Part shown: in pieces, positions 2,124 through 49,124 of the stretch | How positions within the stretch are numbered: position 1 is the first letter of the stretch | Layout: every line of letters starts with the position of its first letter | Notes under the pieces: generated by a model | The model's database searches: none | Seen by the model: only the letters and a program-made list of their open reading frames with translations | What the model was told of the DNA's origin: nothing | IMG/VR virus record: IMGVR_UViG_3300045988_161114 | Location: 1-64,000 of that record | Strand: one strand, 5' to 3' | DNA length: 64,000 nucleotides | DNA from: a virus | Translations under genes and position numbers: made by a program

Positions 2124-2144
2124 CAGGCATACGTCTGACTTTTA

Positions 2145-2220: not shown

Positions 2221-2226
2221 AGTATA

Positions 2227-10535: not shown

Positions 10536-10538
10536 ATT

Positions 10539-11948: not shown

Positions 11949-11955
11949 TTTATGC

Positions 11956-11979
11956 TGGGGCCTAGTGCCCCATTTTTTC
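11956..11979 (+). terminator. rho-independent terminator
   Basis: Stem tggggc / gcccca, loop ctagt, then tttttt. Confidence 0.6.
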
Positions 11980-12002
11980 TAATATTTTATATTGGATTTT
12001 AA

Positions 12003-13676
12003 ATGAGTATTTATAGAGAAGTAAAAGATAGTTCATCTCAAACGTATCAAATTATTAGTGATGAACAACGTCAACGTACAGACTTTTTAAATAAAAAAGC
12101 CGAAGAGATTGGCAAGAAGGCCTTTTTGAAAGGCGGCTTGCAATATCTATTTTCTGTAAAAGATTTGAATAAATTTTATACAGATCCTACACCTGAAATT
12201 AAATTAGGCAAAGTAACTGTAATTGGATGTGGCGGTACTGGTTCATGGTTAATGCCTAAGTTGGCTAAAACTATTAATGATTTAATTCGTAAAAATATTA
12301 TTTTTAAAGACAGTTTTTGTTTAAATCTTGTTGATTTCGACACGGTTAACCTGATTTTTCTAACCGGCCGTGTATAAATTTGCCCTAATTGACTTGGACC
12401 TCTGGCATAACAGAAAACAAGGCGCAAGCAGAGGTTATCCCTCGTGCAGCGTGAACGACTAATGCGGGTGAACACTTAATTGTGAAGCGATAGTCTGTAC
12501 TGCATCGGAAATATGCGATTAAGAGATGCAGAGCAAGGCGGAACAGAAACGACCTTGCCCTTACTTTATGTAAGAGTAACAATAAGCGAAACTAAAAATC
12601 TTGTGCGGCAGAACTTTATTGAGGCTGATATTGGTAAAAATAAAGCTGAAGTAATGGCTATGCGTTATGGATCTACGTTGTCTGAAGGTACTCAATGTGT
12701 ATTTTATGACAAGTATCTTGCACTAGATCCTTCTAAAAAAGAACATCCAGAAGCGTTTATCTCTTTTGATGATGTTTTAGGTTCTACAATTAATAAAAAT
12801 AAATTTGTTAGTGTTATTTTCAATCTTGTGGATAATGATGTTGAGCGTCGTGAATTACATAAATGGATTCGTGATTCTAGATCTCCATACATAGTTATTG
12901 ATATTGGGAATGAACAGACTCATGGTCAGTTATTTGCGTCATATTATAATATGGCTAATATTGATCAGTCATATGAAAAATATGTCAAGAATGTTCCATT
13001 GATTCTTCAAGACTCTTTTGCTGAATATAATCAAGCGATTATTACATCAGATGAAGATGTAGTTGTATTCTCATGTGCAGAAGCTGATGTTTCTGAAGAA
13101 TTTCAAGATCAATTTTTAGTGGCAAATGATGTTGCAGCAACTGTTGGTCATTCATATTTTGTTACATTAATCGATAATCTCACTAAGCATAGATTTACAA
13201 GTCCTTTGCCTCAAGAGATTCGATTTAGTGCAATGTCTCCGGTTCTAGTAACTACTGAACGCAAAGTTTACAATGAGCATGTTCTTTCTTGTATTGAATC
13301 TGCAATTAAGCTTAAAGAAGCTATTGGTGAAGACCAAGTAAAAAGACTGTTTGATATCTTTGATAAAGTTATTTCTTCTCAAAGTTCTTTTGCTTCTAGC
13401 AATAATACTATCAGGATTATTCCTGAAGATGAAAGATGTTATGGCTGGTTTTCTGATTTTATCGATAGAAATATCGGTAATAAAAAGATCAACAAAGAAC
13501 TCAAAAAGCAATTACTAGATGCATGTGCCCCCTCAATGGCTTATCGTACCGGATATCCTAATAACTATAGAGTCAATTATTATGAAATTGATAAAGATTA
13601 TGGCCAATATCTTGGTTATTCTTTAGCCCTTCTTTATTGCGTTTATTCTGTTTTAAAGATTGCTCAATACATTTAA
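12003..13676 (+). CDS. ThiF/MoeB/E1-like adenylyltransferase, two exons: join(12003..12346,12587..13676)
   Basis: Rossmann motif VTVIGCGGTGSW. The spliced junction gives LVDFDTV|ETKNLVRQNFIEADIGKNKAEV, which restores the E1 motif D-x-D-x-V-E-x-x-N-L-x-R-Q...DIGxxKA. Unspliced, exon 1 runs into a stop codon. Confidence 0.75.
12347..12586 (+). mobile_element. group I intron (ORF-less, 240 nt) in the E1-like gene
   Basis: A GC-richer block splits a conserved motif. The exon ends in U (acggt|) and the intron ends in G (aataag|c). Core-like gcgatagtctgtactgcatcgg resembles the gatatagtctgctctgcatgg region of the T4 td intron. Confidence 0.75.
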
Positions 13677-13685
13677 TTAAAACAA

Positions 13686-13719
13686 GCCTGCACTAAATTT
13701 AAAAGTGCAGGCATTTTTA
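13686..13719 (+). terminator. rho-independent terminator
   Basis: Stem gcctgcact / agtgcaggc, then atttttatt. Confidence 0.7.
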
Positions 13720-13734
13720 TTATAAGAAAATAAT

Positions 13735-18303: not shown

Positions 18304-20868
18304 ATGGCAAGAGTTGCAAAAGAAGTAAAAGAAGGCAAAGAAATAGTTGCCGAAAGTAGTTCTACTATATCTAAAGATGATAGAGCTGCGATAGAAATAC
18401 TGAAAAGAAGTATGAATAAAAAGTATGGTGATGGCGATCAAGTATTCATAACAGATTATGATATGGATCTTGAAGGTATCCCTACTGGTAGTGCAATATT
18501 GGATGCTCTTATTGGTAATGGTGGTTGGGCAGAAGGACGTGTTCATGAAATTCATGGGCAATCAGGTAGTGGTAAATCCTCTATTGTTACATTGACTTGT
18601 GCTAATGCACTTAAGAAGCATCCTGATAAATTTATACTATACATTGACGCAGAGCAAGCACAAAACTTCCGCTATATGAAGTTACTTGGACTTGATATGG
18701 AAAAAGATGATAGAATTCTTTTTACTCAGGTTAATTCTGCTGAAGAAGCATTTGATATTATAAATAATTCTATTAAAACAGGTGCATTTAGTCTTATCGT
18801 TTTAGATAGTGTGCCTGCAATACAAACTAAACGTGAAATGAGTGGTGATTTCACTCAAGAAACTATGGCCGAGAAGGCTAGGTTCCTGTCTAAATCTATC
18901 CCTCAATTATTGAAACCTCTGAAACGTTCTAATACTACTCTGATCTTTGTTAATCAAGTAAGGGACAAAATGGATCTTTGGGGTGGGATGGTAACTCCAG
19001 GTAATATAAGCTTTTATTTTTTGACATATCATGTTATAATAGTCTTAATATAGAAAACATTAATTGTTTTAATTTTAAGGTTATAATATGAGATGGTCAA
19101 AATCTGAAGACGATATAATAATTGATTTTATCAGAAATACAAATAATAGAACATTCAAAGATTTACATGAGATGTTTCCAGATAGAACTATATATTCTAT
19201 AAAAATGAGATACCGGTATCGTAAAAGAAATATGTCTGGTAATTATATAACAAAAATCTGGACCAAAGATAAAATAAATATTTTACTCGAAAATTATACT
19301 AATAAAAATATATATGAACTTAGTGAAATTCTCGATATTAAATATTCTACTATTCATGCTAAATTAAGGGATATGAATTTAGTCCCTAAACAAATATTAA
19401 AAAGCTATACAGAAGAAGATGATTTATTTATAAAGGAAAATTATAAAAAAATTAAAACTTCTGATATTGCTTTTGAACTTAAAGTATCTCCCGATGCTAT
19501 TATTCAGAGAGCAGCAAAATTAGGACTTAATACATCTAAAACTAAAAATTATACTGAAGATGAGAAAATTTTTATAATTGAAAATTATTCTAAAATTCCT
19601 ATTGCTGAAATTTCCAAAGTAACTGGAAGAAGTTATTCTTCTATAAATAGTTTTGCTAGAAGAAATAATTTAATTCCGTATAGTAAAATACTGTATGAAA
19701 ATAATGTTAAATTTATTTTGGAAAATTATGAGTCAATGACAGATTCCGAGATATCAAGAAAAATTTCTTTATCAATAGATGCTGTTGAAAATATCCGGAA
19801 AAATCATGGGATATATAAGTCCCCTGCGTTAATTAATGGGATTTCATCTATTGAAAAATTTGTAAAAAATGTTCTTGACGAATTATCCATTAAATATGTT
19901 TATTGTGCAGAACTTGGAAATTTTAAACCTGATTTTCTTTTAGAAAATGGTAAAATTATCGAAGTTAATGGTGATTATTGGCATTGTAATCCTCGTATTT
20001 ATGGCAATGGGCCAGAAGATGAGATACAAGTTAAGCATGTATTAAGAGATTATTCTAAGAAATGTTATTATTTGTCAAATAATATCGATTATATAGAGGT
20101 CTGGGAACATGATATTAATCATAACCCAAACCTAATTGTCGAACAGATAAAGGCTTTCTGCCGTTCATAGTAGAAATATTATGAATTATTATAGCGGAAT
20201 TAAGCGAGAAAATCCTCCCTGTTTCATAGGACAACTCGAACCGAAGGCTAGCTTTAAAAGGCTGGTCAGGGGCAACGCATAGAAGCTGAAACTAATAAAA
20301 AGAATATAATGCTTCCACGAGGCCGCTATACCTAAGTCTTTTTAGATATGGTAAAAAAATATGCTGAACTACATTGTAATGATGTAGAAGCAAAGATAAA
20401 AAACTTTGCGATAACAAATTGGGAAGAGCAATTCCATTTTACTCAAGTACACGTGTTAAAGTTAACTCTACTCCATCTATGCGAATAAAAGGATTAAATG
20501 ATAATTATATTGGCCAAAGAGTAGAATTTTCTGTTGTTAAAAATAAAGTTGGCAATCCGTTTGGCGTTGCTGAAAGCAATCTTTATTTTGGTGTAGGTTT
20601 TAATCCTGTTGAAGAATTAGTTTCTACAGCTGTTAAAGCTGGTATTATCACTAGGGCTGGTTCATGGTTTACTATCCCAGTTAAAAATGATAAAGACGAA
20701 TATATTAAATGTCAGGGTGAAAACGGCTGTTGTGTTTATTATAAAGAGCATCTAGATCATTTAGAAGAATTAAGACAAATTGTTAATAAACATAAAGATT
20801 CTATTTTTGATCAAATGTCTGATGAAGATGTAAAAGAGGCATCTGAAAGTGAAGTATTAGATGAGTAA
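18304..20868 (+). CDS. recA: RecA-family recombinase, two exons: join(18304..19002,20422..20868)
   Basis: IPTGSAILDALIGNGGWAEGRVHEIHGQSGSGKSS (Walker A) and LIFVNQVRDKM. The spliced junction GMVTPG|GRAIPFYSSTRVKV restores the RecA motif TTGGNALKFYASVR. Confidence 0.85.
19003..20421 (+). mobile_element. group I intron (1419 nt) carrying a homing-endonuclease ORF
   Basis: The exon ends in U (ccaggt|) and the intron ends in G (aaattg|gga). The 3' ~250 nt (ggaattaagcgagaa...ccacgaggccg...aaatatgctgaac) is clearly homologous to the ORF-less dnaE introns at 29686 and 30414. Confidence 0.85.
19088..20170 (+). CDS. intron-encoded homing endonuclease: five HTH repeats plus a Vsr-like/PD-(D/E)XK nuclease domain
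   Basis: Five ~45-aa repeats (WSKSEDDIIIDF.., WTKDKINILLENY.., YTEEDDLFIKENY.., YTEDEKIFIIENY.., YENNVKFILENY..). These are followed by FKPDFLLENGKIIEVNGDYWHCNP...IEVWEHD. Confidence 0.65.
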   Translation: MRWSKSEDDIIIDFIRNTNNRTFKDLHEMFPDRTIYSIKMRYRYRKRNMSGNYITKIWTKDKINILLENYTNKNIYELSEILDIKYSTIHAKLRDMNLVPKQILKSYTEEDDLFIKENYKKIKTSDIAFELKVSPDAIIQRAAKLGLNTSKTKNYTEDEKIFIIENYSKIPIAEISKVTGRSYSSINSFARRNNLIPYSKILYENNVKFILENYESMTDSEISRKISLSIDAVENIRKNHGIYKSPALINGISSIEKFVKNVLDELSIKYVYCAELGNFKPDFLLENGKIIEVNGDYWHCNPRIYGNGPEDEIQVKHVLRDYSKKCYYLSNNIDYIEVWEHDINHNPNLIVEQIKAFCRS

Positions 20869-21133
20869 ATTCTCTGATATTGTTTACGACCGTGTCCATA
20901 AGGATGCGGTCTCTCTTTTTATTGGAACTTTAGGTCAGGTATTTAATGGTTACCATAGCTTTGATATTTCTGGCTCTAATTTGTATAATGGTTATTCCTT
21001 CGAAATGAATGAAAATTATACAGAACAAGATGTTAGAATTTGTATTAAATTGTTAGAATTAAATGGCTTTGACGTTAAAGTCAAAGAACAGGATTCTAAA
21101 TTAAAGGGTTTTTCTATAACATGGAAAAAATAA
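20861..21133 (+). CDS. hypothetical protein
   Basis: 90-aa ORF overlapping the recA stop codon. Confidence 0.6.
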   Translation: MSKFSDIVYDRVHKDAVSLFIGTLGQVFNGYHSFDISGSNLYNGYSFEMNENYTEQDVRICIKLLELNGFDVKVKEQDSKLKGFSITWKK

Positions 21134-21606
21134 AAAATGCTCAAGATTCGATAATGGAGTTTATGAAAGCTTGTGAGCAAGAAGTAAGAGAAACTCCCTC
21201 TGTGCCATCTAAAGAAGCTGTATATTTAAGAGCTAAGCTTACATTAGAAGAATGTACAGAATTTATTGAAGCGCTGTTTACTGGTGAAAGCAGAAAGCTT
21301 CCTTATACTAAGATGGTTATTGTTAGCCTTAAGGCTGCAATGTCTGCTTTAGAATTGGGGGCTAAACATCAAGATTTTAATCCTGCTGATGTTGATATGA
21401 AAGAAGTATTAGACGCTATTACTGATATTGAGTATGTAAATATTGGTGCGGCCAATACATTTGGATTTGATCTTGAAAAGTCTTTTAATATAGTCCATGA
21501 TTCTAATATGTCTAAACTAGTTGATGGTAAAGCTGTTAAAAATGAATTTGGCAAAGTTATTAAAGGGCCTAATTATTATCCGCCCAATTTAGATGGATTA
21601 TACTGA
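21121..21606 (+). CDS. MazG-like all-alpha NTP pyrophosphohydrolase
   Basis: LRAKLTLEECTEFIEAL and VLDAITDIEYVNIGAANTFGFDLEKSFNIVHDSNMSKL fit the phage MazG/HisE-like pattern (EE..E ... DaLaDi.Yv..G ... vh.SNmSK). Confidence 0.55.
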   Translation: MEKIKNAQDSIMEFMKACEQEVRETPSVPSKEAVYLRAKLTLEECTEFIEALFTGESRKLPYTKMVIVSLKAAMSALELGAKHQDFNPADVDMKEVLDAITDIEYVNIGAANTFGFDLEKSFNIVHDSNMSKLVDGKAVKNEFGKVIKGPNYYPPNLDGLY

Positions 21607-22106
21607 TGAATAAATTTAAAGCTTTCTTGTTCCTAGTATTATTGTTTTTTATTTTAATTGTATCATTACCATTATTGTTTTTGATTTCACTGTATTGTTT
21701 ATTCTTCTGTAAAGAAGATAAAGTTATTTTAAACGAAGCTAAAAAAGAATTGGCTAAGTTTAAAAAGCATTGTGAAGAAGATGAATCATTTAAGACTCAA
21801 ATAAGTGAAATGTCTATATCAGATAAATTTGATGTTTATAACTGTTATATGGCGGCAGTAGACAATAAAATTGATTTTGATGAAAATAAGGCTATTAAAT
21901 TTATTAAAAAGAAATGGCCTTTGCCTTATGCTATGTGGAAACCTAAAGAGGAATCTATGTATAATGAAATCCGTGCTAAAGCATGGTTTCTATGGGCACT
22001 AGAGGATTTGGGAATTGAATTTCCTGAAATAGAAGATATTGAATTTGTTTATAATACAGATTATCTTTCTATCGATATTGAAAAATTTAAAAATATTTTT
22101 AATTAA
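21606..22106 (+). CDS. hypothetical membrane-anchored protein
   Basis: N-terminal hydrophobic stretch FLFLVLLFFILIVSLPLLFLISLYCLFF. Confidence 0.65.
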   Translation: MNKFKAFLFLVLLFFILIVSLPLLFLISLYCLFFCKEDKVILNEAKKELAKFKKHCEEDESFKTQISEMSISDKFDVYNCYMAAVDNKIDFDENKAIKFIKKKWPLPYAMWKPKEESMYNEIRAKAWFLWALEDLGIEFPEIEDIEFVYNTDYLSIDIEKFKNIFN

Positions 22107-22117
22107 TAAGAAATAAT

Positions 22118-23479
22118 ATGGATTTTGTGTCTACTCCTGAGAATCCCGATGGGGATATTAAACCAGAAGATTTTGGTATGTATACTAATCTTCATGCCCA
22201 TAGTGTTTTTAGCCCACTAGATGGTTATGGTAAACTAGATGATTACTGTAAAAGAGCTAAAGCTCTTGGATTCAAAGGTTTATGCCTATCAGAACATGGC
22301 AATATGATGGGTCATAAAGACCAAGAGAAAATATGTAAGAAATATGGTATAAAACCTATTTATGCAAATGAAGGTTATATGACTCTTCATAGCGGTGCGA
22401 GAAAAGAAAAAATAGAAGGATATAAAGCTAATTACCATATCCTTCTTATAGCTATGAATGATGTAGGTTATAAAAACCTTATGAAGATTACCTCTATTGC
22501 GTGGACTAGATATAAGTATTATAAGCCCAGATTTGACCTTGATCTTTTAAGAGAGAATAATGAAGGCATTATTTGCACTAGTGCATGTTTAGGTGGACCA
22601 ATTAATCAGCTGTACCTCGATGGTAAAGAAGAGGAAGCTGAACAGATTGCTCTAATCCTTAAAGGTATTTTTAAGGATAGGTTCTATCTTGAAAAAACCT
22701 ATACTGGATTAAAAGAACAGGACATTGCAAATAAAAATTTAGTTGAATTGTCCAAGAAGCATAACATACCAATGATTATTACTTGTGATAGTCATTATGT
22801 TTATCCGTGGGAATCTGATTCCCATATGAAACTTGTTATGTTAAACACAGGTGGTCAATTAAATAAAGCTGCCAAAAGTGTAGATTTAACTGATACTGAA
22901 AAAGATGATTCTGATGTAGATAATAACTCTATGTTCTATCAGCCATCACAGTATTATGTCAAACCTCATCATGTTCTTGTTGAGGAATATTATTCTAATC
23001 CAGAAGATGCTGAAGCTTTTGCAAATACCAACAAGATTGCCGAGATGTGTAATGTTACATTACCTAGTAGTGATAGAATGGTTTATCCAGAACCATTTGA
23101 TGATCCAGATAAGGTTTTAAGAGATCGTGCATATGTATGGTATGATGTATATACAAAAGATTTTGAAGATGACAAGAAAAAGCTTTATAAAGATAGACTT
23201 GAGGAAGAATTAAGTCTCTACGAAAAGATGGGTTTTAGCTCTTATCCTCTTGTACTTCAAGATATTATTGAATATGCTAAAAATAATGATATTATGACTG
23301 GCCCTGGACGAGGCAGTGCTGCAGGAAGTTTATTGTCATTTGCACTAGGGCTGACCGCTATTGATCCTATTCCATATGGACTATTATTCTCCAGATATTT
23401 AAATTCTGGCCGTGCTAAATATCCTCTTATTGAAATTCCTGGATATCCATTAAAAGAATGGAATAATAAAGAAGTGTAA
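22118..23479 (+). CDS. dnaE: DNA polymerase III alpha (DnaE) N-terminal fragment: PHP domain up to the palm active-site motif
   Basis: NLHAHSVFSPLDGYG, LSEHGNMMG, and GPGRGSAAGSLLSFALGLTAIDPIPYGLLFSRYLNSGRAKYP. The last aligns with E. coli [42 protein letters not shown]. The match stops exactly before PDFDVDF, after which 17 unrelated codons run to a stop. Confidence 0.85.
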   Translation: MDFVSTPENPDGDIKPEDFGMYTNLHAHSVFSPLDGYGKLDDYCKRAKALGFKGLCLSEHGNMMGHKDQEKICKKYGIKPIYANEGYMTLHSGARKEKIEGYKANYHILLIAMNDVGYKNLMKITSIAWTRYKYYKPRFDLDLLRENNEGIICTSACLGGPINQLYLDGKEEEAEQIALILKGIFKDRFYLEKTYTGLKEQDIANKNLVELSKKHNIPMIITCDSHYVYPWESDSHMKLVMLNTGGQLNKAAKSVDLTDTEKDDSDVDNNSMFYQPSQYYVKPHHVLVEEYYSNPEDAEAFANTNKIAEMCNVTLPSSDRMVYPEPFDDPDKVLRDRAYVWYDVYTKDFEDDKKKLYKDRLEEELSLYEKMGFSSYPLVLQDIIEYAKNNDIMTGPGRGSAAGSLLSFALGLTAIDPIPYGLLFSRYLNSGRAKYPLIEIPGYPLKEWNNKEV

Positions 23480-23497
23480 ATAGTTTCTTTTAGGTAT

Positions 23498-23519
23498 AGC
23501 CACTTTTAAGTAAGTGGCT
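23498..23519 (+). terminator. hairpin downstream of the dnaE N-fragment (weak terminator)
   Basis: 8-bp stem agccactt / aagtggct. The downstream T-tract is poor. Confidence 0.4.
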
Positions 23520-23588
23520 TATCATATATAAGATATAAGTGGATATACTTATCCCGTAGAATATATGATTTCTTTTTAAGGAAATAAA

Positions 23589-23798
23589 ATGCCTGAAACA
23601 AGTAAACCTGTTGGATTCAGCATTCCTCAATGGACTACTGGTACTAGCTCTCTAATGAGAACTGATGGTGCTGGATCCGTTAAACGTGTATCTACAAATG
23701 ATGATATCAGAATTAATGATATTAATGATATGCGAACTTTTTTAGAATCTCTATCAGAACATACTCATAGTTATACAGACTCTATTGGGAGCTGTTAA
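23589..23798 (+). CDS. hypothetical 69-aa protein (possible precursor peptide or small structural protein)
   Basis: First ORF of the cassette, with aaggaaataaaatg at the start. It ends ...SEHTHSYTDSIGSC. The next ORF overlaps its stop codon (taatg). Confidence 0.55.
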   Translation: MPETSKPVGFSIPQWTTGTSSLMRTDGAGSVKRVSTNDDIRINDINDMRTFLESLSEHTHSYTDSIGSC

Positions 23799-24439
23799 TG
23801 ACTAGCAAATTCTCTTTTTATGATTTTGATAATTTTGTTATAAATGATCCAAATAAAGAGCGTCTTGGTGATTTTCTAAAAAACGAATGGCAAAGAGATA
23901 AAGATGACACTTTGCTTTGTGAAAGATTGTTTTTCCTTGCCAATGATTTAGAAGATCTAGAATTCGATATAGATATTTATGTCTTTATTAAAGATTTATT
24001 CAATTGGGCAATAGAACAAATTTCTCAAAAAGAGGGTACAGATAAAAATTCTAAAGAATTTATAAACTGTATTAGTTTATTGCGTTTTGGATTGGGTCTT
24101 GTTGAGATGTATTATGTCCCAAGAAGCTTTTCAAAACTTGTTGATAAAACAAAAGATGACAAAAATAATATTCCCTCTACAGTTAGTGCAATAGTTAATT
24201 CTCTTATTGCTACATATGATCTTTGGAATGGAATAGAAGAATCTGATTTCATTGATCTTAAATATCAGTTTGTATTTGACTATGAGACTGATGTTTATTA
24301 TGCTGTAATTAGAGATTATGTTGCTAATATGAATCAAGAAATTAAACCTATTGTTACTCATCCATTTGTTTTATTTGATGATAATAAATCTGGTATTGAG
24401 ACTTTTAAGAAAAGACTTGCTGAAGCTTGTTCAAAATAA
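23798..24439 (+). CDS. hypothetical acidic protein
   Basis: 213-aa ORF, translationally coupled to the preceding gene. Confidence 0.7.
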   Translation: MTSKFSFYDFDNFVINDPNKERLGDFLKNEWQRDKDDTLLCERLFFLANDLEDLEFDIDIYVFIKDLFNWAIEQISQKEGTDKNSKEFINCISLLRFGLGLVEMYYVPRSFSKLVDKTKDDKNNIPSTVSAIVNSLIATYDLWNGIEESDFIDLKYQFVFDYETDVYYAVIRDYVANMNQEIKPIVTHPFVLFDDNKSGIETFKKRLAEACSK

Positions 24440-24445
24440 TATAAT

Positions 24446-24471
24446 AGCCTGCCTTATGGCGGGCTTTTTTA
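24446..24471 (+). terminator. rho-independent terminator
   Basis: Stem agcctgcc / ggcgggct, loop ttat, then tttttt. Confidence 0.7.
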
Positions 24472-24480
24472 GGACTTTAA

Positions 24481-25584
24481 ATGTTATTACCTATTGTATT
24501 TAGTAATCATTGTGATCTTGATTGTACATATTGCTGTATACAATCCAAAAATATGAGTCCATTTTTAGATATCAATAAAATTGATAACTTTATTGCAACC
24601 TATTCTACTAAAAAGAATATAGTAGAATTTTATGGTGGTGAACCTACATTACACAAAGATTTAATTTTTGAGACTATAAAGCTTATTAATGATAAGCATT
24701 CTGACAAAGAATTTTCTTATCGTTTGTATACAAATGGTGTATTTAAAGATTATTCTGTTGACGAGATTAAATTCATAGCATCAAATATAGACGAGATACT
24801 ATTATCTCTTGATGGATTTGATTACGAAGACAATACAAAACGTTTTACATCTATTGATGAATATAATTCTGTAATTAATAATCTGAAAGTTCTTATATCT
24901 AATGATGCTAATGTAGGAATAAGTTCTGTTTTGTATAATATGTCTAACTATTCTAAGATATATGATAATTATAAAAAATTTTTTGACATTGGTGTTAGAT
25001 ATTTTTCTTATGAGCCGTTGACTATATTTCAAACAGATAAGGCTGTTGTTATTCCTAAGAAGTTTATGAAAGCTTTTACAAAAAATATTTATAAGGTTGT
25101 AAAAGATATTTCTGATAATGATTTAATAGGCGAAGTAGAACTATTTGTTGCTAAAGAGTTATTATCTTCTTCTTGGTATAATAATGGGGAAAAGACACAA
25201 TGCAGTAAATGGATTAGGGCATTAAGTCCTCGTGGCAATATATACATGTGTAGGGATCATGCCGCAAATGAAGAAGAGATGTTCTTTTCTCCAAAAGTAA
25301 TACAATTCTTTAACAAGAATAATTTAAAAATAGATAATGGATCATTTCCATTTGTTGAACAAAATGAAAATAATTTAACTCTGTGTTCTGTTAAAAATAT
25401 TCAATACAGAGATTTAAAAATAGATGACAAGTTATATTGGTTAGATGATGAATGGCAAGATTTAATAATAAGGCCATTGTATCAAATTATTATGGCTATT
25501 GATGTTGGTGATAAGTCCATCAAGCCATATATAGAAAAATATATTTCTATGCTCCCTGCTATATTTGAAAGACTTAAAATATGA
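24481..25584 (+). CDS. radical SAM enzyme with twitch/partial-SPASM-like C-terminal Cys motif
   Basis: FSNHCDLDCTYCC gives C-x3-C-x2-C. EFYGGEPTLH is also present. Downstream, CSKWIRALSPRGNIYMC gives C-x10-G-x4-C, the first half of the SPASM/twitch signature. Confidence 0.75.
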   Translation: MLLPIVFSNHCDLDCTYCCIQSKNMSPFLDINKIDNFIATYSTKKNIVEFYGGEPTLHKDLIFETIKLINDKHSDKEFSYRLYTNGVFKDYSVDEIKFIASNIDEILLSLDGFDYEDNTKRFTSIDEYNSVINNLKVLISNDANVGISSVLYNMSNYSKIYDNYKKFFDIGVRYFSYEPLTIFQTDKAVVIPKKFMKAFTKNIYKVVKDISDNDLIGEVELFVAKELLSSSWYNNGEKTQCSKWIRALSPRGNIYMCRDHAANEEEMFFSPKVIQFFNKNNLKIDNGSFPFVEQNENNLTLCSVKNIQYRDLKIDDKLYWLDDEWQDLIIRPLYQIIMAIDVGDKSIKPYIEKYISMLPAIFERLKI

Positions 25585-26144
25585 TTTCTATTAGAAAAGC
25601 TACAGAATCTGATGTAGAATTCATGATCGAATGTATCAATAAAGATTATCAGATTAATGATTATCAAATGGATTTTGATGATTGGATTGCTGACGTATTC
25701 CCGGGCGGCAGAGATTTAAAAACAATTCAAACATATGTTAATCCTAAATTACCCCAAGATTTATATATTGTTAATACTGGATACAAAGATGTTGGATTCT
25801 TTAGTCAAGATGTAGATGAAACTAATTCTACAATTGGCGGTATTGCCTTTATGCATAGACATGCATGTAAAATGGCTATATTAAAAATAATTAAAGCCAT
25901 TGCTATTAGGGGTACTTTAATATCTGATAATTATAGATATTTTGAATACAATACATGGAATAAGTTAATTGTTACTGTTGTTCAGTCAGTTATTCCTAGT
26001 TTAAAAGAATTTAAAATAACCGATGGTTATCGTATTGTAGTTGGTGAAACTAATTACAGTAAAGAAAAGGTCGATGCTGTTAAAGATAAGTATAATATCA
26101 CAGACCTCACAAAAGATTTTACATTTTGTTTTGATGATAGATAA
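25581..26144 (+). CDS. GNAT-like N-acetyltransferase (tentative)
   Basis: It starts MISIRKATESDVEFMIECI, typical of GNAT N-termini, and has the right size (187 aa). The Q/RxxGxG/A motif is not clearly seen. Confidence 0.35.
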   Translation: MISIRKATESDVEFMIECINKDYQINDYQMDFDDWIADVFPGGRDLKTIQTYVNPKLPQDLYIVNTGYKDVGFFSQDVDETNSTIGGIAFMHRHACKMAILKIIKAIAIRGTLISDNYRYFEYNTWNKLIVTVVQSVIPSLKEFKITDGYRIVVGETNYSKEKVDAVKDKYNITDLTKDFTFCFDDR

Positions 26145-26145
26145 T

Positions 26146-26799
26146 ATGAAGCCAGAGTTTAAGACTGAAAATTGTCCTCCAGGATTTTATATAGATGGCG
26201 CCATTCAATGGAGTGCGTCAAAAGAGTATTATACATATTCATTAATATTTCAAAGAATATTTAATTCAATGTTTCCGCCAGGTAAAGCTCCTCAAGAGTT
26301 TTTGAATATACTTGTAGTTGGAGGTGGAGACTTCCAACTTATTAGTGGAAAGACATTTTTATCAAATGAGAATAGAATAACGCTTGTTGATCCTGGTGTT
26401 ACTGAATATTTTAAACTTCTTGAAGAGAATAAAGAAAATATTCCTGAAAGGATTTATAATGAACAAAGGCATTGTTATGAATCTAAGTCCTTCTTAAATA
26501 TTCATGAAAAAACTATTCAGGAATTCTTAAAAGATAATACTCAGACTTTTGATATTATTGTGGTAGATTTAATAGATGAACTTGCTGCTGATCCATATAA
26601 TGAATATGCGTCAGGGCTATATAAAGCTTTGCGTCCTGAAGGAGTTATGATTGGATACGGCGGATTAAGCTATACTGATTTTGTTGTAAATGGATCAATT
26701 CTTCCATTGGAATGGAATGATGTAGTTATACATAAAAAGTATTTTAAATCTTGGAAAGATAATGGTGTCTTTTATGGGCTCAGAAAACCTAAGAAATAA
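26146..26799 (+). CDS. spermidine synthase-like (aminopropyltransferase / class I SAM-dependent fold)
   Basis: ILVVGGGDFQL (compare GGGDGG), ITLVDPG, FDIIVVDLIDELAADPY (compare YDVIIxDxxDP) and LRPEGVM. The ATG at 26146 was used rather than the track's 26041, which overlaps the previous gene. Confidence 0.5.
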   Translation: MKPEFKTENCPPGFYIDGAIQWSASKEYYTYSLIFQRIFNSMFPPGKAPQEFLNILVVGGGDFQLISGKTFLSNENRITLVDPGVTEYFKLLEENKENIPERIYNEQRHCYESKSFLNIHEKTIQEFLKDNTQTFDIIVVDLIDELAADPYNEYASGLYKALRPEGVMIGYGGLSYTDFVVNGSILPLEWNDVVIHKKYFKSWKDNGVFYGLRKPKK

Positions 26800-27346
26800 A
26801 ATCCATAACATTATAAAATGGATGGATGATAATTCTTTCTGTAAAAATATTATTGAAGATGACAAAAACGGGAAGATTATAAAAAAGAATGTTGATGCAA
26901 TAGATCATATTTGTTTTTCCAAGTCTAAATGGTCTGCGTTTCCTGTATATCCATTTTCATGGAACGATAATTTATATGGAATAGAAAACATCTTATTTGA
27001 AAATAAGATTGGATTCGCTTGGATAAATAAATTCTCTGAAGGGTCTATTGTTAGCGAACATTCTGATTCTGAAAAAATAAACGAATATATTAATTATCGC
27101 ATAATAATGTCTATGTCAGATGGTAAATGTTTGTTTAAGACGGATCATAAGCATAGACTTGATACAATGTATCAGTTTTCTGTATTTAAGCCTATGGAGC
27201 CACATTCTCTTATTCAAGAAGAGAATGATGGATATTATCTGATATTAGATGTATATAAAGAAGATTTATCTATTGATGATTTAAAAACCATCTATAAATA
27301 TTACAAAGAAAGATATATAGATGATATTCCAGAAACGAATAAATGA
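26762..27346 (+). CDS. cupin-type 2OG-Fe(II) dioxygenase-like (Asp/Asn beta-hydroxylase-like), paralog 1
   Basis: SIVSEHSDSE provides H-x-D, followed by YRIIMSM and a distal His in MEPHSLIQ. The start is uncertain (26762, 26774 or 26822). Confidence 0.4.
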   Translation: MVSFMGSENLRNKIHNIIKWMDDNSFCKNIIEDDKNGKIIKKNVDAIDHICFSKSKWSAFPVYPFSWNDNLYGIENILFENKIGFAWINKFSEGSIVSEHSDSEKINEYINYRIIMSMSDGKCLFKTDHKHRLDTMYQFSVFKPMEPHSLIQEENDGYYLILDVYKEDLSIDDLKTIYKYYKERYIDDIPETNK

Positions 27347-27929
27347 ATTAAAAGATTCAATATCTGGTTATTTTTCTGATATTTTAGAAGAGTATAAAGC
27401 TGCAAGCTTTGATAATACTATGGATACCTATACTGGTATTTGGCGTAGTGCTGTTGTATATGGTATTGATATAATCAATACAGAAGTATTGCGTAAAACT
27501 AATTTCCGTGGCTATGAAAAACTTTTAAGAGGCATAGATTCTTTTAATAGAATATTGGCTATGGATAATTATAAAATAGCCTCTATTGAATTTAATTACT
27601 TTGAAGATTGCAAAGTAGAACCTCATGTCGATGATCATAATTTTGACGATAGAAGAATAAGAATATTTATTCCTATATCTTATAATAAAAAGCCTGAAGT
27701 TTATATCCATGAAGGAAATCCTTTTAATTCAGAGGAAACTATAAGTGGATATAATGATGGCACACCTTTTATCTTTGATTGTACATTAAAACATTCAGCT
27801 AATATACAAGGAACAGCAACTTGTGCAATAGTGGATTTGCTACCAAAAGATATTAGCGCATTAGACTATATTAAATATTGTTCTAAGCCTTTAATGTATT
27901 ATTGGGAAAAAACTTTTAAACTTACTTAG
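27321..27929 (+). CDS. cupin-type 2OG-Fe(II) dioxygenase-like (Asp/Asn beta-hydroxylase-like), paralog 2
   Basis: KVEPHVDDHNFDDRRIRIFIPI provides H-x-D then R-x-h-h-P, and FIFDCTLKHSANIQG provides the distal His. This is the pattern of the Asp_Arg_Hydrox family as recalled. Confidence 0.45.
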   Translation: MIFQKRINELKDSISGYFSDILEEYKAASFDNTMDTYTGIWRSAVVYGIDIINTEVLRKTNFRGYEKLLRGIDSFNRILAMDNYKIASIEFNYFEDCKVEPHVDDHNFDDRRIRIFIPISYNKKPEVYIHEGNPFNSEETISGYNDGTPFIFDCTLKHSANIQGTATCAIVDLLPKDISALDYIKYCSKPLMYYWEKTFKLT

Positions 27930-27942
27930 AAAGAAAATTAAT

Positions 27943-28206
27943 ATGAACCAAGAATTAGATAAAGCAATAGCATTGTATCAAGAAGGCTTAGATAATGTAA
28001 TGAAGCCTGTTTATGATGCTATATTTTGTGTAGCAAGTAAAGGCGAAGATTCTTATGTATTTAAATTAGATACATATGAGCCGCATATTGTTGATAAAGT
28101 TATCTCTATTCTTAAAAAGAAAAAGTTCACTATTGAAAAAATATCTGATACTGAATTTGAAGTATGGGGATGGGCATATGAAAATCCTCAACTTTATTTA
28201 TTCTAA
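27943..28206 (+). CDS. hypothetical protein
   Basis: 87-aa ORF, the last gene of the cassette before the dnaE C-gene. Confidence 0.6.
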   Translation: MNQELDKAIALYQEGLDNVMKPVYDAIFCVASKGEDSYVFKLDTYEPHIVDKVISILKKKKFTIEKISDTEFEVWGWAYENPQLYLF

Positions 28207-28218
28207 TGTAAGATAAAA

Positions 28219-31200
28219 ATGAAATATAAAACTTTAAGAGAATTAGTATTAAGCCACTCCCAAGAGGAGTGGTTTTTGCATAATAAGAAGAATATCATGT
28301 TTGAGCTTAATCATTGTGAGCTCCACCATATTGATTCTTATTTTTTAAATCTTTACAATGCTGGTATTAAAGATCTAGATAATCCTAATAGTAGTAATAT
28401 TTTATATTTACTAGGTATGACTAGTGTTGAACCACATAAACGTATTGATACTGTTGGTGGTGGCTTCCCGGATTAAATTAGTCCCTTTTGTTAAGAAATT
28501 AACAATAGAAAACTCTGTGAAAACGGTGAAACTCCTGTAAGGACAATACCGTGCGAAACTTTACCAAAGTAAAGGACGTGTAACGACTATTATGTAGGGC
28601 CAAGTGGTTCGAAGCGCAGAGCGCCTAAGTCTTCATAGATATGGCGATGAGATAGTCTGCTCTATATAGTAATATATAGCTGGGTTTTATTCCCGGGTAT
28701 GGATTAACGACCCATACTGAACATAAAGGATCGATAGCGATTTCAGTAATGATAAACGTGAAAAAGTATTTGATTATTTAAAATCTAAATATGGTGATGG
28801 TTTCGCACATTTAGGTACTATTACTTATACTGCTGGCAAACAAGTATTTAAATCAGCTGCCCGCATTCATGGTATGTCATTTGAAAAGGCAAATAAGATT
28901 TCTAATCTTATGCCTGACATAAATTGTCCCAGATTAGAAGTTTTATTAGAAGAAAATTCTGATATAAAGAAACTTTACAATTCTGATACAGAAATTAAAG
29001 AAATATGGGATGATGCTGTTAAATTGCAAGATTGCATTAATGCAACAGGGGTTCACGCTTGCATGTTATCAGGCACCAAAGTTACCATAAAAAGAACTAA
29101 TAATTCTGAACCTGAATACATGAATATTGAAGATGTTAAAGTTGGATATCTGGCTTTAACACATCTATTAAATTGGAAGCCTGTAGTAGATGTTCAGGTT
29201 AATGAATCTAAGTTAAGTAATGTTGTGGCATTTACATACCAGCAAACTGATTATGACGAATTTTCAGTTTTAAGATGTACATCTAATCATCCTATATTTG
29301 TAATTGACACTATTGAAGATGATGATGATCAAAAAGATGAACTTAATGGTACTTGTTATTGGATAAATGCCGGCGATATTAAACGTCGTTATAGAGTTGT
29401 TGGTGCAGACATTAATGGATCTTTTAGAACTCCAAGAATGGTTCTTCATACACATCCATATTCTACTGTATATAATGATTCGAATGATGAAACAGTCAGT
29501 GTATATAACCTTACTGTTTTAGATGATTCCTCATATATCGCTAATGGTATTGTAGTACATAATTGCGGAGTAGCATTATCTGATAGACCATTATGGGAAG
29601 ATGTTCCATTATGGGATAGTAAAGGTAAAACTGTTACCCAATGGGAGGGTAACAAAATTGAAGAATATGCTGGTATTGTTAAGCTAGGAATCTGGCGTTT
29701 CCAATAGGAATATTGGTTATTATTACACCGGAATTAAGCGAGAAGGCTGTGATGCTAACTCGAGTCCGAAGGCTATTTTAAAGCAATAGTCAGGCGCAGA
29801 GCATAGGTAGTGAAACTGTTAATCAGAATATAATCTACCCACGAGGCCGGTGCAACCAGAACGGTTGAAAAAATATGCCGAACCAGATTAAAAAGAAGTC
29901 TGGATTGTTAAGATAAAAAACTTAACACTATATATTTTATATATATAGAATTTTTGAGACATCCTTGGTTTAAAAACGCTTGGTGTACTCGAGTATGCTA
30001 AGAAACTTATTAAAGATAGACATGGTATTGATATAGATTGGTATACATTACCAATGGATGATGAAAAAGCATATAAGATTATGTGGGATAGACGTAATTA
30101 TGGAATATTCCAATTTGAAGAATCTGGTATGTCTTCTTTTATTAATAAGTGTAAACCTAAAACAATACATGATATAGCAGTATGTGTTAGTACATGGCGG
30201 CCAGGACCAATGTCGGTGACTGGACTTGTAGAGCGTATAATAGGTAAGATTAGTGGAGAAATCCCTAAGACTGACTTTATATTCCCAAAATATAATTATA
30301 TTTTTGAAAATGCACATAACGAAATTGTCTTCCAAGAAGGTTTCATCAGATTATCAATGGATATGTGTGGATTCACAGAAATAGAAGCGGATAAACTAAG
30401 AAAAGCAGTAGGTGAGTAATTGCCCCTTGTTTTAGTAATGAAACAATGTGTATCGAGCAAAATCGGTGAAGGCTGAGATGCTAATACCGAGGTAAGCTTA
30501 TAGTAACTATAAGCCACCGTAGAGCGTAGAGATTGAAAAGATATAATATCTCCAAGAGTGTTCGACATCCTTATAGGATGAAAATGTACGCCGAACTTAT
30601 GCAAATATGAAGTATAAGAACTATTGGATAAAAAGCCAATAGGATAACATAATTGAAAAAAGATGCTGCTTTGCTTGCGTCATTAAAAGACAAGTTCATT
30701 AATGGTGCTGTTGCTTCTGGTGAAGATGAGAGAAAAGTTAGTTCATTTTGGGAAGAACTAATGCTGTTTGCGCAGTATGCGTTTAATGCTTCGCATGCGT
30801 ACTCGTATGGTCATTTGACCTATTATACTGCTTGGCTTAAAGCCAATTATCCAAATGAGTTTTATTGTTCTATTATAAGTTGTGAAACTGAGGCTTCTAC
30901 TCAGCGTATTTATATGGAAGATGCTAAAGCTCATGGTATTAAAATTTTACCTCCTAATCTTAATGAATCTGATAGTGGTTTTACACTAGATAGGAATAGT
31001 GATATTATTTATGGTTTATCTGGTATTGCTAATATTGGTGAACCTATTTATAAGCAAATTATAGAATTGCGCCCGTTTAAAAGTTTCGGCGATTTCTTAT
31101 TAAAAACACATCTGTTTGGATCTAGTATTACTAAGAAAGCTATTGATGCTTTAATACGTTCTGGATCTATGGATTGTTTTGGATATAAACGAAGCGTTAT

Positions 31201-32089
31201 GCTTCGTTCTTATGAGAAGTTTAAATTAGACTTTGATCCTAAGAAATCATTTAAACGTGAAATTGCTAAAACTGGCGAAATGTCTGATGAAATTAGGGCA
31301 AGATATAAAGAGTTCTTAGAAAAGGAATCTGAATATTTTGAGGATAAAACATTTAAAGAATTCTCATTGTTTGATATTTTAGAAGACGAAAAGAACTTTA
31401 TTGGAGTGTATATTTCCGGCGATCCAATGGATTTAGTAGTAAAAACTGTAACCGAAAGACACTTTACATCAGAAGAAGTTAAATCTGCTGTAGAGTATAA
31501 AGGTATGTTTTCTGGTTCTGTTATCGCTTATATTTCTTCTGTTCGTGCTTTGAATACCCGTACTGGTAAGAAGATGTGCTTCTTAGATTGTATAGATCAT
31601 GAGGGGAAACGTTTTTCTGCTACTGTATTTGATCCTAATTATACAAAACTGAAAGATATTTTACGTTCTGGTAATTATATACAATTAGTTATTTCTGCTA
31701 AACCAAGTTATAAGGGCAACGGCGAAATAGATTCTATTGTTAATATGGCGATAGATTTAGGTGAACGGTGTAAAGAACAAGTCCGCGAGGAAGAGCATAA
31801 AAATAAAGTTAAAGAAGCCTTTATTATATTAGATGATATTCCTAGTAGTGTAAGATTTAAATCTATTTTGAATAAAGTTCAAGAATTAATTCCTGAAGAT
31901 AAATTTGATTCAGATGGAGCTGTATCAATAGTGGTAAAAGTTCCTTCTAAGAAATATGAATCTGTTAATATCGAAAGGAAAGATTCTGACTTTGAAATGA
32001 GATTTGGGCCTTTTTATACTAAACTTATTGATGTTGAAGTAATCAGAATGCTTAATAAGCTTCTTGATGTTACAATAGCTACAAGATAG
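28219..32089 (+). CDS. dnaE: DNA polymerase III alpha (DnaE) C-terminal gene, four exons: join(28219..28473,28730..29685,29957..30413,30656..32089); contains a mini-intein
   Basis: Spliced junctions restore DnaE motifs: GGGFPD|IDSDF (PDxDxDF), AGIVKL|DILGLKTL (KxDFLGL) and ADKLRKAVG|KKDAA (RRAMGKKK). Also present: IFQFEESGM, WRPGPM, FNASHAYSY, and an OB-fold-like tail. The 85-aa exon 1 carries a degenerate copy (SYFLNLYN...NILYLLGMTSVEP) of the end of the N-fragment. Confidence 0.85.
28474..28729 (+). mobile_element. group I intron (IA2, T4 td-like; 256 nt, ORF-less) in dnaE
   Basis: The 3' half, gagatagtctgctctatatag...ttcccgggtatggattaacgacccatactgaacataaagg, is near-collinear with the T4 td intron 3' half (GAGATATAGTCTGCTCTGCATGG...TTCCGGGGTAAGATTAACGACCTTATCTGAACATAATG). 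U at -1 and a terminal G. Confidence 0.85.
29060..29563 (+). mobile_element. mini-intein (168 aa, no endonuclease domain) in DnaE
   Basis: Begins CMLSGTKVTI (block A) and has LRCTSNHPIFV (TxxH, block B). It ends VYNLTVLDDSSYIANGIVVHN with +1 Cys. Excision gives TGVHA-CGVALSD, aligning with E. coli GKHAGGVVIAP. Confidence 0.85.
29686..29956 (+). mobile_element. group I intron (271 nt, ORF-less) in dnaE
   Basis: The exon ends in U (aagct|) and the intron ends in G (tttttg|a). The sequence (ccggaattaagcgagaaggctgtgatgctaa...ccacgaggccgg...aaatatgccgaac) is homologous to the 3' part of the recA intron. Confidence 0.8.
30414..30655 (+). mobile_element. group I intron (242 nt, ORF-less) in dnaE
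   Basis: The exon ends in U (gtaggt|) and the intron ends in G (ataattg|aaa). It shares gaaggctgagatgctaa and aaatgtacgccgaac blocks with the 29686 and recA introns. Confidence 0.8.
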
Positions 32090-32120
32090 GCTGAGAGAAA
32101 TCTCAGCCTTTTCTTTTTGT
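32088..32120 (+). terminator. rho-independent terminator after dnaE
   Basis: Stem aggctgaga / tctcagcct, loop gaaa, then ttttcttttt. Confidence 0.75.
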
Positions 32121-32177
32121 ATAAAAACAAAAAATTGTATATAATTAGAACAATAATAATTTATATGAAAGTTTCTA

Positions 32178-32570
32178 ATGAAAAAAGAGTTTTATATCGA
32201 TAGTTATAATAATTTTGTATTTAAAGCTACTTTTAAAGAGTATGAAGAAATAAAAGAAGTTCATTACGATGATATTTCTGATCTTATACCTGTTAAAGGC
32301 AATAGGGTAATAGGTGTTTCTATTAATAAGACAAAATTTAAAGAAGCTATTGTAGCAATGACTAAAACTAGAGATAGTGTATATCAGATGGAACTTTATG
32401 CTGATTTCTCCTTTTTTAATTTTGGTGATAATCATCATTTTTTGTTATTCCGCGCAGATGATGGATTAATCGAATGCAAAGTTGTATTCAGAATAGAAGA
32501 TGACTTTTATGCTATTAATATGTCTGATTACCTTCCTATCTCTGTTATAGATTTCTTAACTGAATATTGA
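32178..32570 (+). CDS. hypothetical protein
   Basis: 130-aa ORF. No motifs recognised. Confidence 0.65.
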   Translation: MKKEFYIDSYNNFVFKATFKEYEEIKEVHYDDISDLIPVKGNRVIGVSINKTKFKEAIVAMTKTRDSVYQMELYADFSFFNFGDNHHFLLFRADDGLIECKVVFRIEDDFYAINMSDYLPISVIDFLTEY

Positions 32571-48424: not shown

Positions 48425-48552
48425 TATATTATTCCTTGTTAGTGGGGCAACCCATTTTAAGTGGGCGCCCCTTTATAAAAGATTATCTAAACTCCCCAAA
48501 TAGATATAAAACTACCTTGCCTGTTTTATACCATTAGTTTAGATTTTCTTTT

Positions 48553-49107: not shown

Positions 49108-49124
49108 TTTTATTCCCTATATTG

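Follow-up and report, generated by a model that had tools for sequence, protein, structure and literature searches.

A conserved small peptide and a radical SAM enzyme encoded inside the split dnaE gene of a large uncultivated gut phage: a candidate RiPP-like modification pathway

Background

What are eight small genes doing in the middle of a DNA polymerase gene, and on what do their products act? The question is raised by a 64,000-nucleotide stretch of viral DNA (positions 1 to 64,000 of IMG/VR record IMGVR_UViG_3300045988_161114; this whole stretch is called the window below) in which dnaE is divided into an N half and a C half, and a cassette of eight co-directional open reading frames (ORFs) on the + strand exactly fills the break, with 4.7 kb of DNA intervening between the halves. 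The cassette encodes a 69-amino-acid (aa) peptide, an acidic partner protein, a radical S-adenosylmethionine (SAM) enzyme, a GNAT-fold protein, a spermidine-synthase-like (SpeE-like) protein, two cupin proteins and an 87-aa ORF product. An initial annotation, made from the letters of the sequence, noted that the set resembles maturation clusters for peptides that are made by the ribosome and modified after translation (RiPPs) as well as phage hypermodification pathways, and suggested that it had arrived as mobile cargo. In our judgement the cassette has an even chance of being a RiPP-like post-translational modification pathway, which would act on the C-terminal tail of the co-encoded 69-aa peptide. 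The module is a variant of radical SAM peptide maturation that lies outside every named RiPP class, because the curated score cutoffs and the substrate features of those classes are not reached.

The radical SAM protein was found by exact look-up as an identical copy on human-gut metagenome contigs of ~185 kb, and all eight ORFs stand at the positions first proposed for them and are gene-called on the identical public contigs. The window itself carries a tRNA array and genes for RecA, RuvC, a primase-helicase, ribonucleotide reductase, deoxynucleoside monophosphate (dNMP) kinase and ligase, and its G+C content is mostly 27-36%, rising to as much as 42% (36-42%) at 49-56 kb. The N half of DnaE is at most 38% identical to its counterparts in GenBank phages. 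When positions 22000-32200 were compared with GenBank phages by megablast, chance matches of 34-37 nt and nothing close were returned, and tblastn searches of the same phages with the peptide and with the head of the dnaE C half gave no match, so that there is no cultured relative to compare. The relatives used here, labelled L003-L239, are loci from IMG/VR scans, metagenome scans and exact look-ups, dozens in total. A degenerate DNA pattern for the radical SAM motif CRDxAANEE was also run on genome contigs; it matched at least 120 loci, and none of those listed encoded the family. Full-text literature searches found no description of the module, nor of a peptide and radical SAM enzyme combined with an aminopropyltransferase-like enzyme.

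Results

The peptide family and its radical SAM enzyme

69-aa peptide (PEP), the presumed substrate: 23589..23798, + strand; conserved domain of ~50 aa, H58-x-H60-x-Y-x-D64, short linker, terminal Cys69
Twitch-type radical SAM enzyme: 24481..25584, + strand; C11/C15/C18 and auxiliary C241/C257/C302; PF04055, 1.8e-15

The peptide belongs to a family of 20 clusters detected with HMMER among 1.84 billion representative proteins, nearly all of them 65-79 aa long, and it is encoded at 40 of the 55 metagenome loci that matched the hand-made codon pattern with which peptide relatives were sought. The family signature is M-P-x-T-x-x-P, W15, G18, R33-V, D44-I-N46-x-L-R49, E53 and H58-x-H60-x-Y-x-D64, within which W15, G18, R33, D44, N46, R49, H58, H60 and D64 are invariant. 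The conserved domain contains an amphipathic helix followed by the HxH element; after HxHxYxD comes a Gly/Ser/Thr-rich linker of 3 to ~13 residues, and at least 90% of members end in a conserved Cys. In the window peptide this is the single Cys, in place of the several expected of a ranthipeptide/SCIFF-type substrate, and a hydrophobic signal-like stretch is absent from the N-terminus. No member has a Pfam match and the family profile has no significant match in PDB; no known replisome protein or solved structure is similar. The combination of a conserved domain with a variable tail fits the leader/follower logic of RiPP precursors.

The radical SAM enzyme scores 58 bits against PF04055 (gathering cutoff 29.5). 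In an alignment of 22 members, C11-x3-C15-x2-C18 is invariant and so are C241, C257 and C302; G252 is nearly invariant, giving the SPASM/twitch-type motif C241-x10-G252-x4-C257. Both motifs had been picked out from the single sequence and prove to be conserved across the family. The protein has seven Cys in total and the seven-Cys SPASM motif is absent, hence it is twitch-like; C19 might supply a fourth ligand. Its top NCBIfam models are all peptide maturases (PapB, best at 3.6e-16, HxsB and the SCIFF maturase), with 59.3 bits against PapB NF047865 (cutoff 340) and 47.6 bits against SCIFF TIGR03974 (cutoff 425). When the family profile was compared with PDB, CteB was matched at 6.9e-23, the next entry at 2.5e-12, and viperin-like proteins and MoaA at ~1e-9. 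By its sequence the enzyme looks like a peptide maturase; among solved structures CteB, a synthase of Cys thioethers, is the nearest to it by ten orders of magnitude. A role in defence or anti-defence was considered and rejected, as PADLOC gave only a generic match of the radical SAM core to pVip.

Partner protein and putative tailoring enzymes

213-aa acidic partner protein (p213): 23798..24439, + strand; isoelectric point 4.5; start overlaps the peptide stop codon (ATGA)
Terminator-like hairpin and T run: 24446..24471 (hairpin 24446-24465), + strand; between the partner and radical SAM genes
187-aa GNAT-fold protein (p187): 25581..26144, + strand; invariant Cys96 (HPxSCKM); assigned by AlphaFold2 (AF2) model and Foldseek
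SpeE-like aminopropyltransferase-fold protein: 26134..26799, + strand; 221 aa; GGGD; D145-x-x-D148
Cupin A: 26762..27346, + strand; HxD...H; corresponds to the N domain of a two-domain oxygenase-like protein of relatives
Cupin B, AspH-like Fe(II)/2-oxoglutarate (2OG)-oxygenase-like domain: 27321..27929, + strand; H102-x-D104...H158
87-aa ORF, lineage-specific accessory: 27943..28206, + strand; phrog_8208, 6e-5; seen in the window and in L003 only

The partner protein has no match in Pfam, PHROG, NCBIfam or PADLOC. It is fast-evolving: most loci have some gene at the position, and the sequences are demonstrably similar only within the group of gut clades and L007. The terminator reported behind its gene is the only hairpin with a T run in 22000-29000, and its place behind the peptide and partner genes is in keeping with strong expression of the two as a precursor unit; the terminator is not conserved in L004, where the partner and radical SAM genes abut. 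Two further elements precede the peptide gene. A perfect 8-bp hairpin (AGCCACTT TTAAGT AAGTGGCT) at 23498-23519, just past the stop codon of the dnaE N half and ~70 nt upstream of the peptide gene, has no T run and was therefore missed by the terminator scan. A 19-nt motif, TATAAGTGGATATA(C/A)T(T/G)AT, lies at 23534-23552 and has a second copy, 89% identical, at 27740-27758 inside the cupin B gene; the motif might serve as a promoter- or operator-like element of the phage, or be due to chance.

No Pfam GNAT model matches p187, and a profile search against PDB sequences gave nothing significant; the label "GNAT-like" is supported at the level of the fold. The AF2 model, built on a 6-sequence alignment (the homologue sets for p187 and for the SpeE-like protein comprise 7 proteins each), has a mean local confidence (pLDDT) of 79 and a predicted TM score (pTM) of 0.79, and among its Foldseek matches in PDB, 50 of the 50 listed are GNAT-family or related acyltransferases (E ~1e-6, TM ~0.5), SpeG-type spermidine N-acetyltransferases among them. 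A GNAT toxin with the peptide as its small antitoxin was rejected, because the acetyl-CoA loop is missing from p187 and in most cases its gene does not adjoin that of the peptide.

For the SpeE-like protein the ATG at 26134, which is the start called on the public contigs, is more likely than the TTG at 26041. The resemblance to spermidine synthases holds: PF01564 is matched at 1.4e-8 (34.9 bits, gathering cutoff 22.9), the family profile finds PDB spermidine synthases at 3e-11, and G63-G-G-D66, D86, D145 and D148 are invariant and align with the GGGDGG and DSSD motifs of Plasmodium spermidine synthase. Equivalog models are far from reached (20.3 bits vs 249.6 for TIGR00417; 18.3 vs 260 for PRK00811), and the homologue search, which retrieved 7 proteins, found no cellular homologue. 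As for the cupins, which had been described as paralogues, both keep an HxD...H triad, invariant in both domains; BLASTP detects no similarity between the two (E 3.6), and they map onto the N and C domains of one 355-396-aa protein in relatives. Cupin B of the window matches PF05118 weakly (E 0.031, 14.5 bits against a gathering cutoff of 22.6), 6 of 10 relatives match it as well (best 5.4e-5), and a cupin profile found nothing significant among PDB sequences. From their motifs and, for p187, the model, the SpeE-like protein, the cupins and p187 look like active tailoring enzymes. Transporter, exporter and protease or peptidase families have no match among the cassette ORFs.

Conservation and lineage variation

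In the gut clades (IMG/VR contigs of 170-187 kb were analysed) the order is dnaE N half, an extra gene in some, peptide, partner, radical SAM enzyme, GNAT-fold protein, SpeE-like protein, cupins in some, dnaE C half, and the same gene order is found in L009 and L007, whose radical SAM enzymes are 32% and 29% identical to that of the window. The core of the module is the peptide, the radical SAM enzyme, p187 and the SpeE-like protein, together with the fast-evolving partner; the cupins are less widely kept and the 87-aa ORF occurs in the closest relatives only. A short precursor is thus co-localised and co-conserved with a radical SAM enzyme, as in RiPP clusters, the exceptions being L039 and L040, which have no radical SAM gene, and L008-like phages, in which the two lie ~6 kb apart.

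The L008-like phages have no recognisable dnaE nearby and keep the radical SAM enzyme, a weak AspH-like cupin, the GNAT-fold protein and the SpeE-like protein. In L008 the second gene downstream of the SpeE-like gene encodes an AdoMet decarboxylase (AdoMet_dc, 4.6e-22). Since such a decarboxylase makes the aminopropyl donor, its presence speaks for a true aminopropyl transfer by the SpeE-like protein. The L008 peptide and its flanking genes of ~400 aa and ~280 aa recur in L227, L197 and L229 with homing-endonuclease-like ORFs inserted between them, and this suggests that mobile elements target the peptide gene and those around it as part of the conserved core. The ORFs flanking the peptide in these loci (L197 207-3712; L227 6023-7696, - strand; L229 2969-4633, - strand) encode 474-626 aa with DUF723/DUF4379 treble-clef zinc fingers and are, to judge from these domains, probably free-standing homing endonucleases.

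In marine and sediment lineages the linkers are Thr-rich and end in C, CG, K or W, and one or two other radical SAM enzymes adjoin the peptide. The best NCBIfam match of the 498-aa enzyme of L041 is PapB, and the first-position enzymes of L167 and L176 match TIGR04084 first and PapB second; within the DNA examined at these loci, neither a GNAT-fold nor a SpeE-like gene was seen. A constant peptide with tailoring enzymes that vary by lineage, as these gene sets appear to have, is the usual pattern of a RiPP family.

A different arrangement is found in two loci that have no radical SAM gene, in which a protein of three peptide-domain repeats is encoded between the dnaE halves:

Three-repeat protein P0069 (252 aa): L039, 10001-10759
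Three-repeat protein P0066 (261 aa): L040, 1158-1943

Each repeat carries H-x-H-x-(Y/H)-x-D or a variant of it, with no linker and no terminal Cys. In L039 the GNAT-fold gene follows the three-repeat gene directly, despite the lack of both a radical SAM enzyme and SpeE. A single-sequence AF2 model of P0069 was uninformative (pLDDT 36). The peptide gene thus follows the dnaE N half even in enzyme-less relatives, a point that the initial annotation missed. The conserved domain seems to have a function of its own, independent of the radical SAM enzyme, because L039 and L040 retain it in triplicate without that enzyme; and the radical SAM enzyme appears to go with the tail, because both tail-less versions (P0069 and P0066) occur in loci without it, while the GNAT-fold protein appears to go with the domain.

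The split dnaE gene

dnaE N half: 22118..23479, + strand; PHP domain (PF02811, 7e-41) and start of the Pol III alpha core (DNA_pol3_alpha, PF07733, 4e-29); own stop codon
dnaE C half: 28219..32089, + strand; own ATG; located by tblastn with the uninterrupted C half of L007

The N half ends in a conserved C-terminal tail (YPLIEIPGYPLKEW...) that is kept in L004, L007, L009 and L039. The tails at the break that are common to the gut clades, L009 and L007 read ...GRAKxPxIExxGYPxxEW in the N half and ...TLRELVxSxxxxEWF...ELNHxELH... in the C half, and the head of the C half carries a degenerate second copy of the ...YLLGIT..P helix found just before the break. The gene is broken at the cassette, as first described, and is interrupted further on as well: the C half contains three non-coding gaps (28474-28729, 29693-29957 and 30417-30655; ~240-265 nt each, with many stop codons) and an intein at ~29060-29476 (GVHA/C...VVHN/C). 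Rfam searches over 18900-30800, at the gathering threshold and at E <= 0.1, found no intron family at the dnaE or recA gaps; the dnaE gaps could represent small introns of a type for which no model exists. At other dnaE sites, additional inteins and LAGLIDADG ORFs occur in L004, L007, L009, L039 and L040. A split intein at the break itself was rejected, since a Cys/Ser start is lacking in the N tail and an HN-C junction in the C head. By analogy with other split phage genes, the two halves would reassemble into one enzyme.

The cassette has no flanking repeats that we could find and its G+C content resembles that of its surroundings, and the synteny survey suggested earlier, of relatives with intact dnaE, turned up no unsplit dnaE within the peptide-bearing clade. 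The split and the module appear to be ancient and vertically inherited and not recent mobile cargo, because they are shared by relatives down to 29-34% radical SAM identity.

Other features of the window and its relatives

A seven-tRNA array lies at the start of the window (241-2297). Upstream of dnaE there is a ubiquitin-like conjugation set with Prok-E2_D at 9774-10535 (7.6e-6) and Prok-JAB at 10539-11948 (1.2e-4), and a ThiF/E1-like gene seemingly in two pieces (12003-12377, a weak ThiF match, and 12513-13676); no ubiquitin-like partner was identified for the set. A 699-aa reverse transcriptase gene at 13735-15834 directly follows ThiF, and the ThiF-reverse transcriptase pair is also present in L007 and L039. 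A link of the E1/E2/JAB genes to the cassette was rejected, as ThiF also occurs in L039, which lacks the radical SAM gene. The recA gene is interrupted, its N part (18304-19053) and C part (20419-20868) flanking a 360-aa endonuclease-like ORF (19088-20170); this looks like an intron with a homing endonuclease, though no Rfam intron family matches. RecA is intact (363-381 aa) in L003, L022 and L023 and split also in L004, L017 and L018. At 47000-64000 the coding strand turns to minus, and large ORFs of 1212, 873, 586, 574, 571 and 528 aa in this region probably form a structural module. In gut phage contigs of 220-290 kb (L025, L029 and L031, at ~10001-14500), four radical SAM genes (396, 365, 338 and 373 aa) are packed into a few kb among small conserved ORFs, and L032 has five; these enzymes are unrelated to those of the dnaE module beyond the radical SAM core.

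Discussion

If the cassette is a RiPP-like pathway, its steps can be sketched as follows. The conserved ~50-aa domain of the peptide would serve as the recognition handle for the enzymes, and the radical SAM enzyme would act on the C-terminal tail, its auxiliary cluster with three invariant Cys ligands binding the terminal Cys thiolate. A three-Cys auxiliary cluster may leave an open iron site, as in CteB. The enzyme might then make a thioether to the HxHxYxD region, with Asp64 as the candidate residue, or otherwise carry out an oxidative transformation of the terminal residue. Hydroxylation of a side chain (for example, of Asp or Asn) would fall to the AspH-like Fe(II)/2OG oxygenase domains, the SpeE-like enzyme would move an aminopropyl group from decarboxylated SAM to a peptide nucleophile, or to a polyamine that is then attached to the peptide, and the GNAT-fold protein would acylate an amine. 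For the product, a site of action within the infected cell during replication is more probable than secretion as a toxin, because the peptide has no signal-like N-terminus and the cassette ORFs have no exporter or peptidase match. One might go further and picture the matured peptide as a small protein or cofactor-like arm that carries a cross-link and an aminopropyl group and cooperates with the split DnaE replicase or is directed against the replisome of the host, in which case the split dnaE could be a co-localised resistant or partner enzyme; we regard this extension as improbable. If true, it would be a ribosomally encoded, radical-SAM-matured part of a viral DNA replication apparatus, and to our knowledge no RiPP-like system has such a role.

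Several observations weigh against the RiPP-like pathway. The peptide chemistry is something we infer from the sequences of the genes. The radical SAM enzyme scores far below all curated NCBIfam cutoffs, too low for assignment to any RiPP class; a RiPP recognition element (RRE) could not be recognised in the partner protein, nor was a leader peptidase found. In p187 the acyl-CoA loop Q/R-x-x-G-x-G/A is absent, the site reading H-(P/R)-x-(S/A)-C-K-M, in which the Cys is invariant and Gly is missing. Asp64 and the terminal Cys are separated by anything from 4 to ~14 residues, which is odd for a defined macrocycle; the putative modification site lies in the most conserved part of the peptide; and some lineages that do have the radical SAM gene end in Lys, Trp or Cys-Gly instead of Cys. 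The variable Asp-Cys spacing and the K or W termini would weaken the specific thioether idea in particular. The separation of the peptide from the enzymes in L008-like phages, where it lies ~6 kb downstream, and the retention of the domain without a radical SAM enzyme in L039 and L040 point in the same direction, and the SpeE-like protein, the AdoMet decarboxylase and the GNAT-fold protein could be plain polyamine metabolism.

Rather than the precursor of a natural product, the peptide might be a functional small protein of the replication module, such as an oligomerising and metal-binding accessory to the split DnaE or a thiol-ended swinging-arm carrier, with the enzymes decorating it as a protein cofactor or acting on its cargo. 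This is rather unlikely in our estimate, but much of the distribution is in its favour: in almost every lineage the peptide gene stands directly 3' of the dnaE N half, and this holds for L039 and L040 too, where the radical SAM gene is lacking and the domain is in triplicate, and around the L008 peptide the same neighbours recur in L227, L197 and L229 with homing-endonuclease-like insertions, as around core genes. The variable-length linker with its terminal thiol looks like a tether, and the amphipathic helix followed by HxH recalls an arrangement common in metal-binding trimeric phage fibres and spikes. In L008-like phages and in L183, however, the peptide is away from any recognisable dnaE half, similarity to known replisome proteins or solved structures is lacking, the AF2 model of P0069 is uninformative, and enzymes acting on the peptide are still needed, so that this explanation overlaps with the RiPP-like pathway. 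A phage polyamine pathway, for instance one in which the SpeE-like enzyme, a SpeG-like GNAT and in some phages the AdoMet decarboxylase make or acetylate spermidine-like polyamines that condense the 185 kb genome, would make the peptide and the radical SAM enzyme functionally separate neighbours. Intact catalytic motifs in the SpeE-like protein, the solid AdoMet_dc gene two genes downstream in L008, SpeG among the structural matches of p187, and L239, which has a SpeE-like gene near the peptide and no radical SAM gene found within the 12 kb examined, all agree with it. Such a pathway is nonetheless unlikely, as the SpeE-like protein has no detectable cellular relatives and falls far under the spermidine-synthase equivalog cutoffs, p187 has an invariant Cys in place of the acetyl-CoA loop, L039 keeps p187 beside the peptide domain without SpeE, and the tight, ancient synteny with a peptide and a maturase-like radical SAM enzyme is left unexplained.

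Hypermodification of phage DNA or nucleotides, as in thymidine hypermodification pathways, in which radical SAM enzymes do occur alongside acyltransferases and enzymes that add amines, was among the possibilities first raised for the cassette. The module does sit in a replication and nucleotide region (RecA, RuvC, DnaE, primase-helicase, ribonucleotide reductase, dNMP kinase and ligase) and adjoins ThyA and dihydrofolate reductase genes in L008, and Mom of phage Mu is a DNA modifier with an acyltransferase fold. According to PMC7261163, Mom modifies DNA and derives from an ancestral protein fold. Little else speaks for this explanation, which we hold to be very unlikely: no 5-hydroxymethyldeoxyuridine kinase, amino-acid:DNA transferase, hydroxymethylase, glycosyltransferase, glycosylase or transglycosylase was detected among the cassette genes and the 30 tested neighbours of the cassette in the window, the radical SAM enzyme is nearest to peptide maturases (CteB at 6.9e-23 vs ~1e-9 for viperin and MoaA), and a conserved peptide has no place in it. 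The suggestion that the cassette is recently acquired cargo that disrupted dnaE fares worst and is extremely improbable. Mobile elements do target dnaE and recA (the intein, the intron-like gaps and the endonuclease-like ORF in recA), and the content between the dnaE halves differs by lineage, but the split site, both tails and the core genes are common to gut and environmental relatives at 29-58% radical SAM identity, and the absence of flanking repeats, the G+C content like that of the surroundings and the lack of an unsplit dnaE in the clade all count against a recent event; an ancient insertion may have created the dnaE split. The first-noted resemblance to RiPP maturation, by comparison, has gained from the wider survey, in which the peptide family is conserved, is linked to radical SAM enzymes nearest to peptide maturases, and is accompanied by lineage-variable tailoring enzymes.

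What is new here is a peptide and radical SAM module that is kept across a deep clade of large uncultivated gut and environmental phages inside a split polymerase gene, and whose genes include one for an aminopropyltransferase-like enzyme. Should the peptide be modified in the way proposed, the module would represent new RiPP-like chemistry (a C-terminal Cys tail with possible aminopropylation) and a new intracellular viral use of such peptides. The split dnaE is also a clean case of an essential gene maintained in two pieces over long evolutionary time.

Comparison with known systems

The nearest of the known peptide systems is SCIFF/ranthipeptide maturation (CteB, PapB), in which a small ribosomal peptide is likewise encoded beside a CX3CX2C radical SAM enzyme with a C-x(9-15)-G-x4-C auxiliary motif and Cys is the special residue of the substrate tail; CteB is the closest solved structure and PapB the top NCBIfam model. 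The module differs in that its enzyme scores far under the cutoff (59 vs 340 bits), has three auxiliary Cys instead of the seven-Cys SPASM set and has no RRE domain, its substrate has one Cys at the very C-terminus instead of several, and it belongs to a phage, lies within dnaE and includes SpeE-like and GNAT-fold genes as well. The radical SAM enzyme QhpD matures the small gamma subunit of quinohemoprotein amine dehydrogenase by forming Cys to Asp/Glu thioethers, which is followed by oxidation, and the product is a protein subunit that is not secreted. The enzyme of the module (1.7e-6 against TIGR03906) is related only at the radical SAM core, and the module has no dehydrogenase partner and a peptide with a single Cys.

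With SpeE the SpeE-like protein shares the class I fold, the aligned GGGD and D-x-x-D motifs and, in L008, a nearby AdoMet decarboxylase, but it is much shorter, far under the equivalog cutoffs and without detected cellular relatives. Microcin C (MccD/MccE), a ribosomal peptide that carries an aminopropyl group, likewise has a GNAT domain encoded in its cluster, and its terminal Asn is activated by an E1-like enzyme; it differs from the module in its enzyme pair, in the terminal Asn and in the E1-like activation.

Biosynthetic gene clusters are rare in phages and nearly all are prophage bacteriocins, such as sublancin on SPbeta (bioRxiv 10.1101/2020.10.01.322628). In those clusters, as in the module, a phage genome encodes a precursor peptide and modifying enzymes; they belong to temperate phages and include immunity and export genes for a secreted toxin, whereas the module has neither, uses a different enzyme set and is located in the replication region of a large phage. 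For the polymerase gene itself, the closest precedent by analogy is nrdA of Aeromonas phage Aeh1, which is split by mobE and whose products reassemble via tails (PMC3045599). In both cases an essential gene is divided into two separately translated ORFs with conserved, unique tails at the break and other genes between them. The dnaE break differs in that reassembly of its products is a prediction, and in holding 4.7 kb of conserved biosynthetic-type genes instead of a single homing endonuclease, an arrangement conserved across a deep clade.

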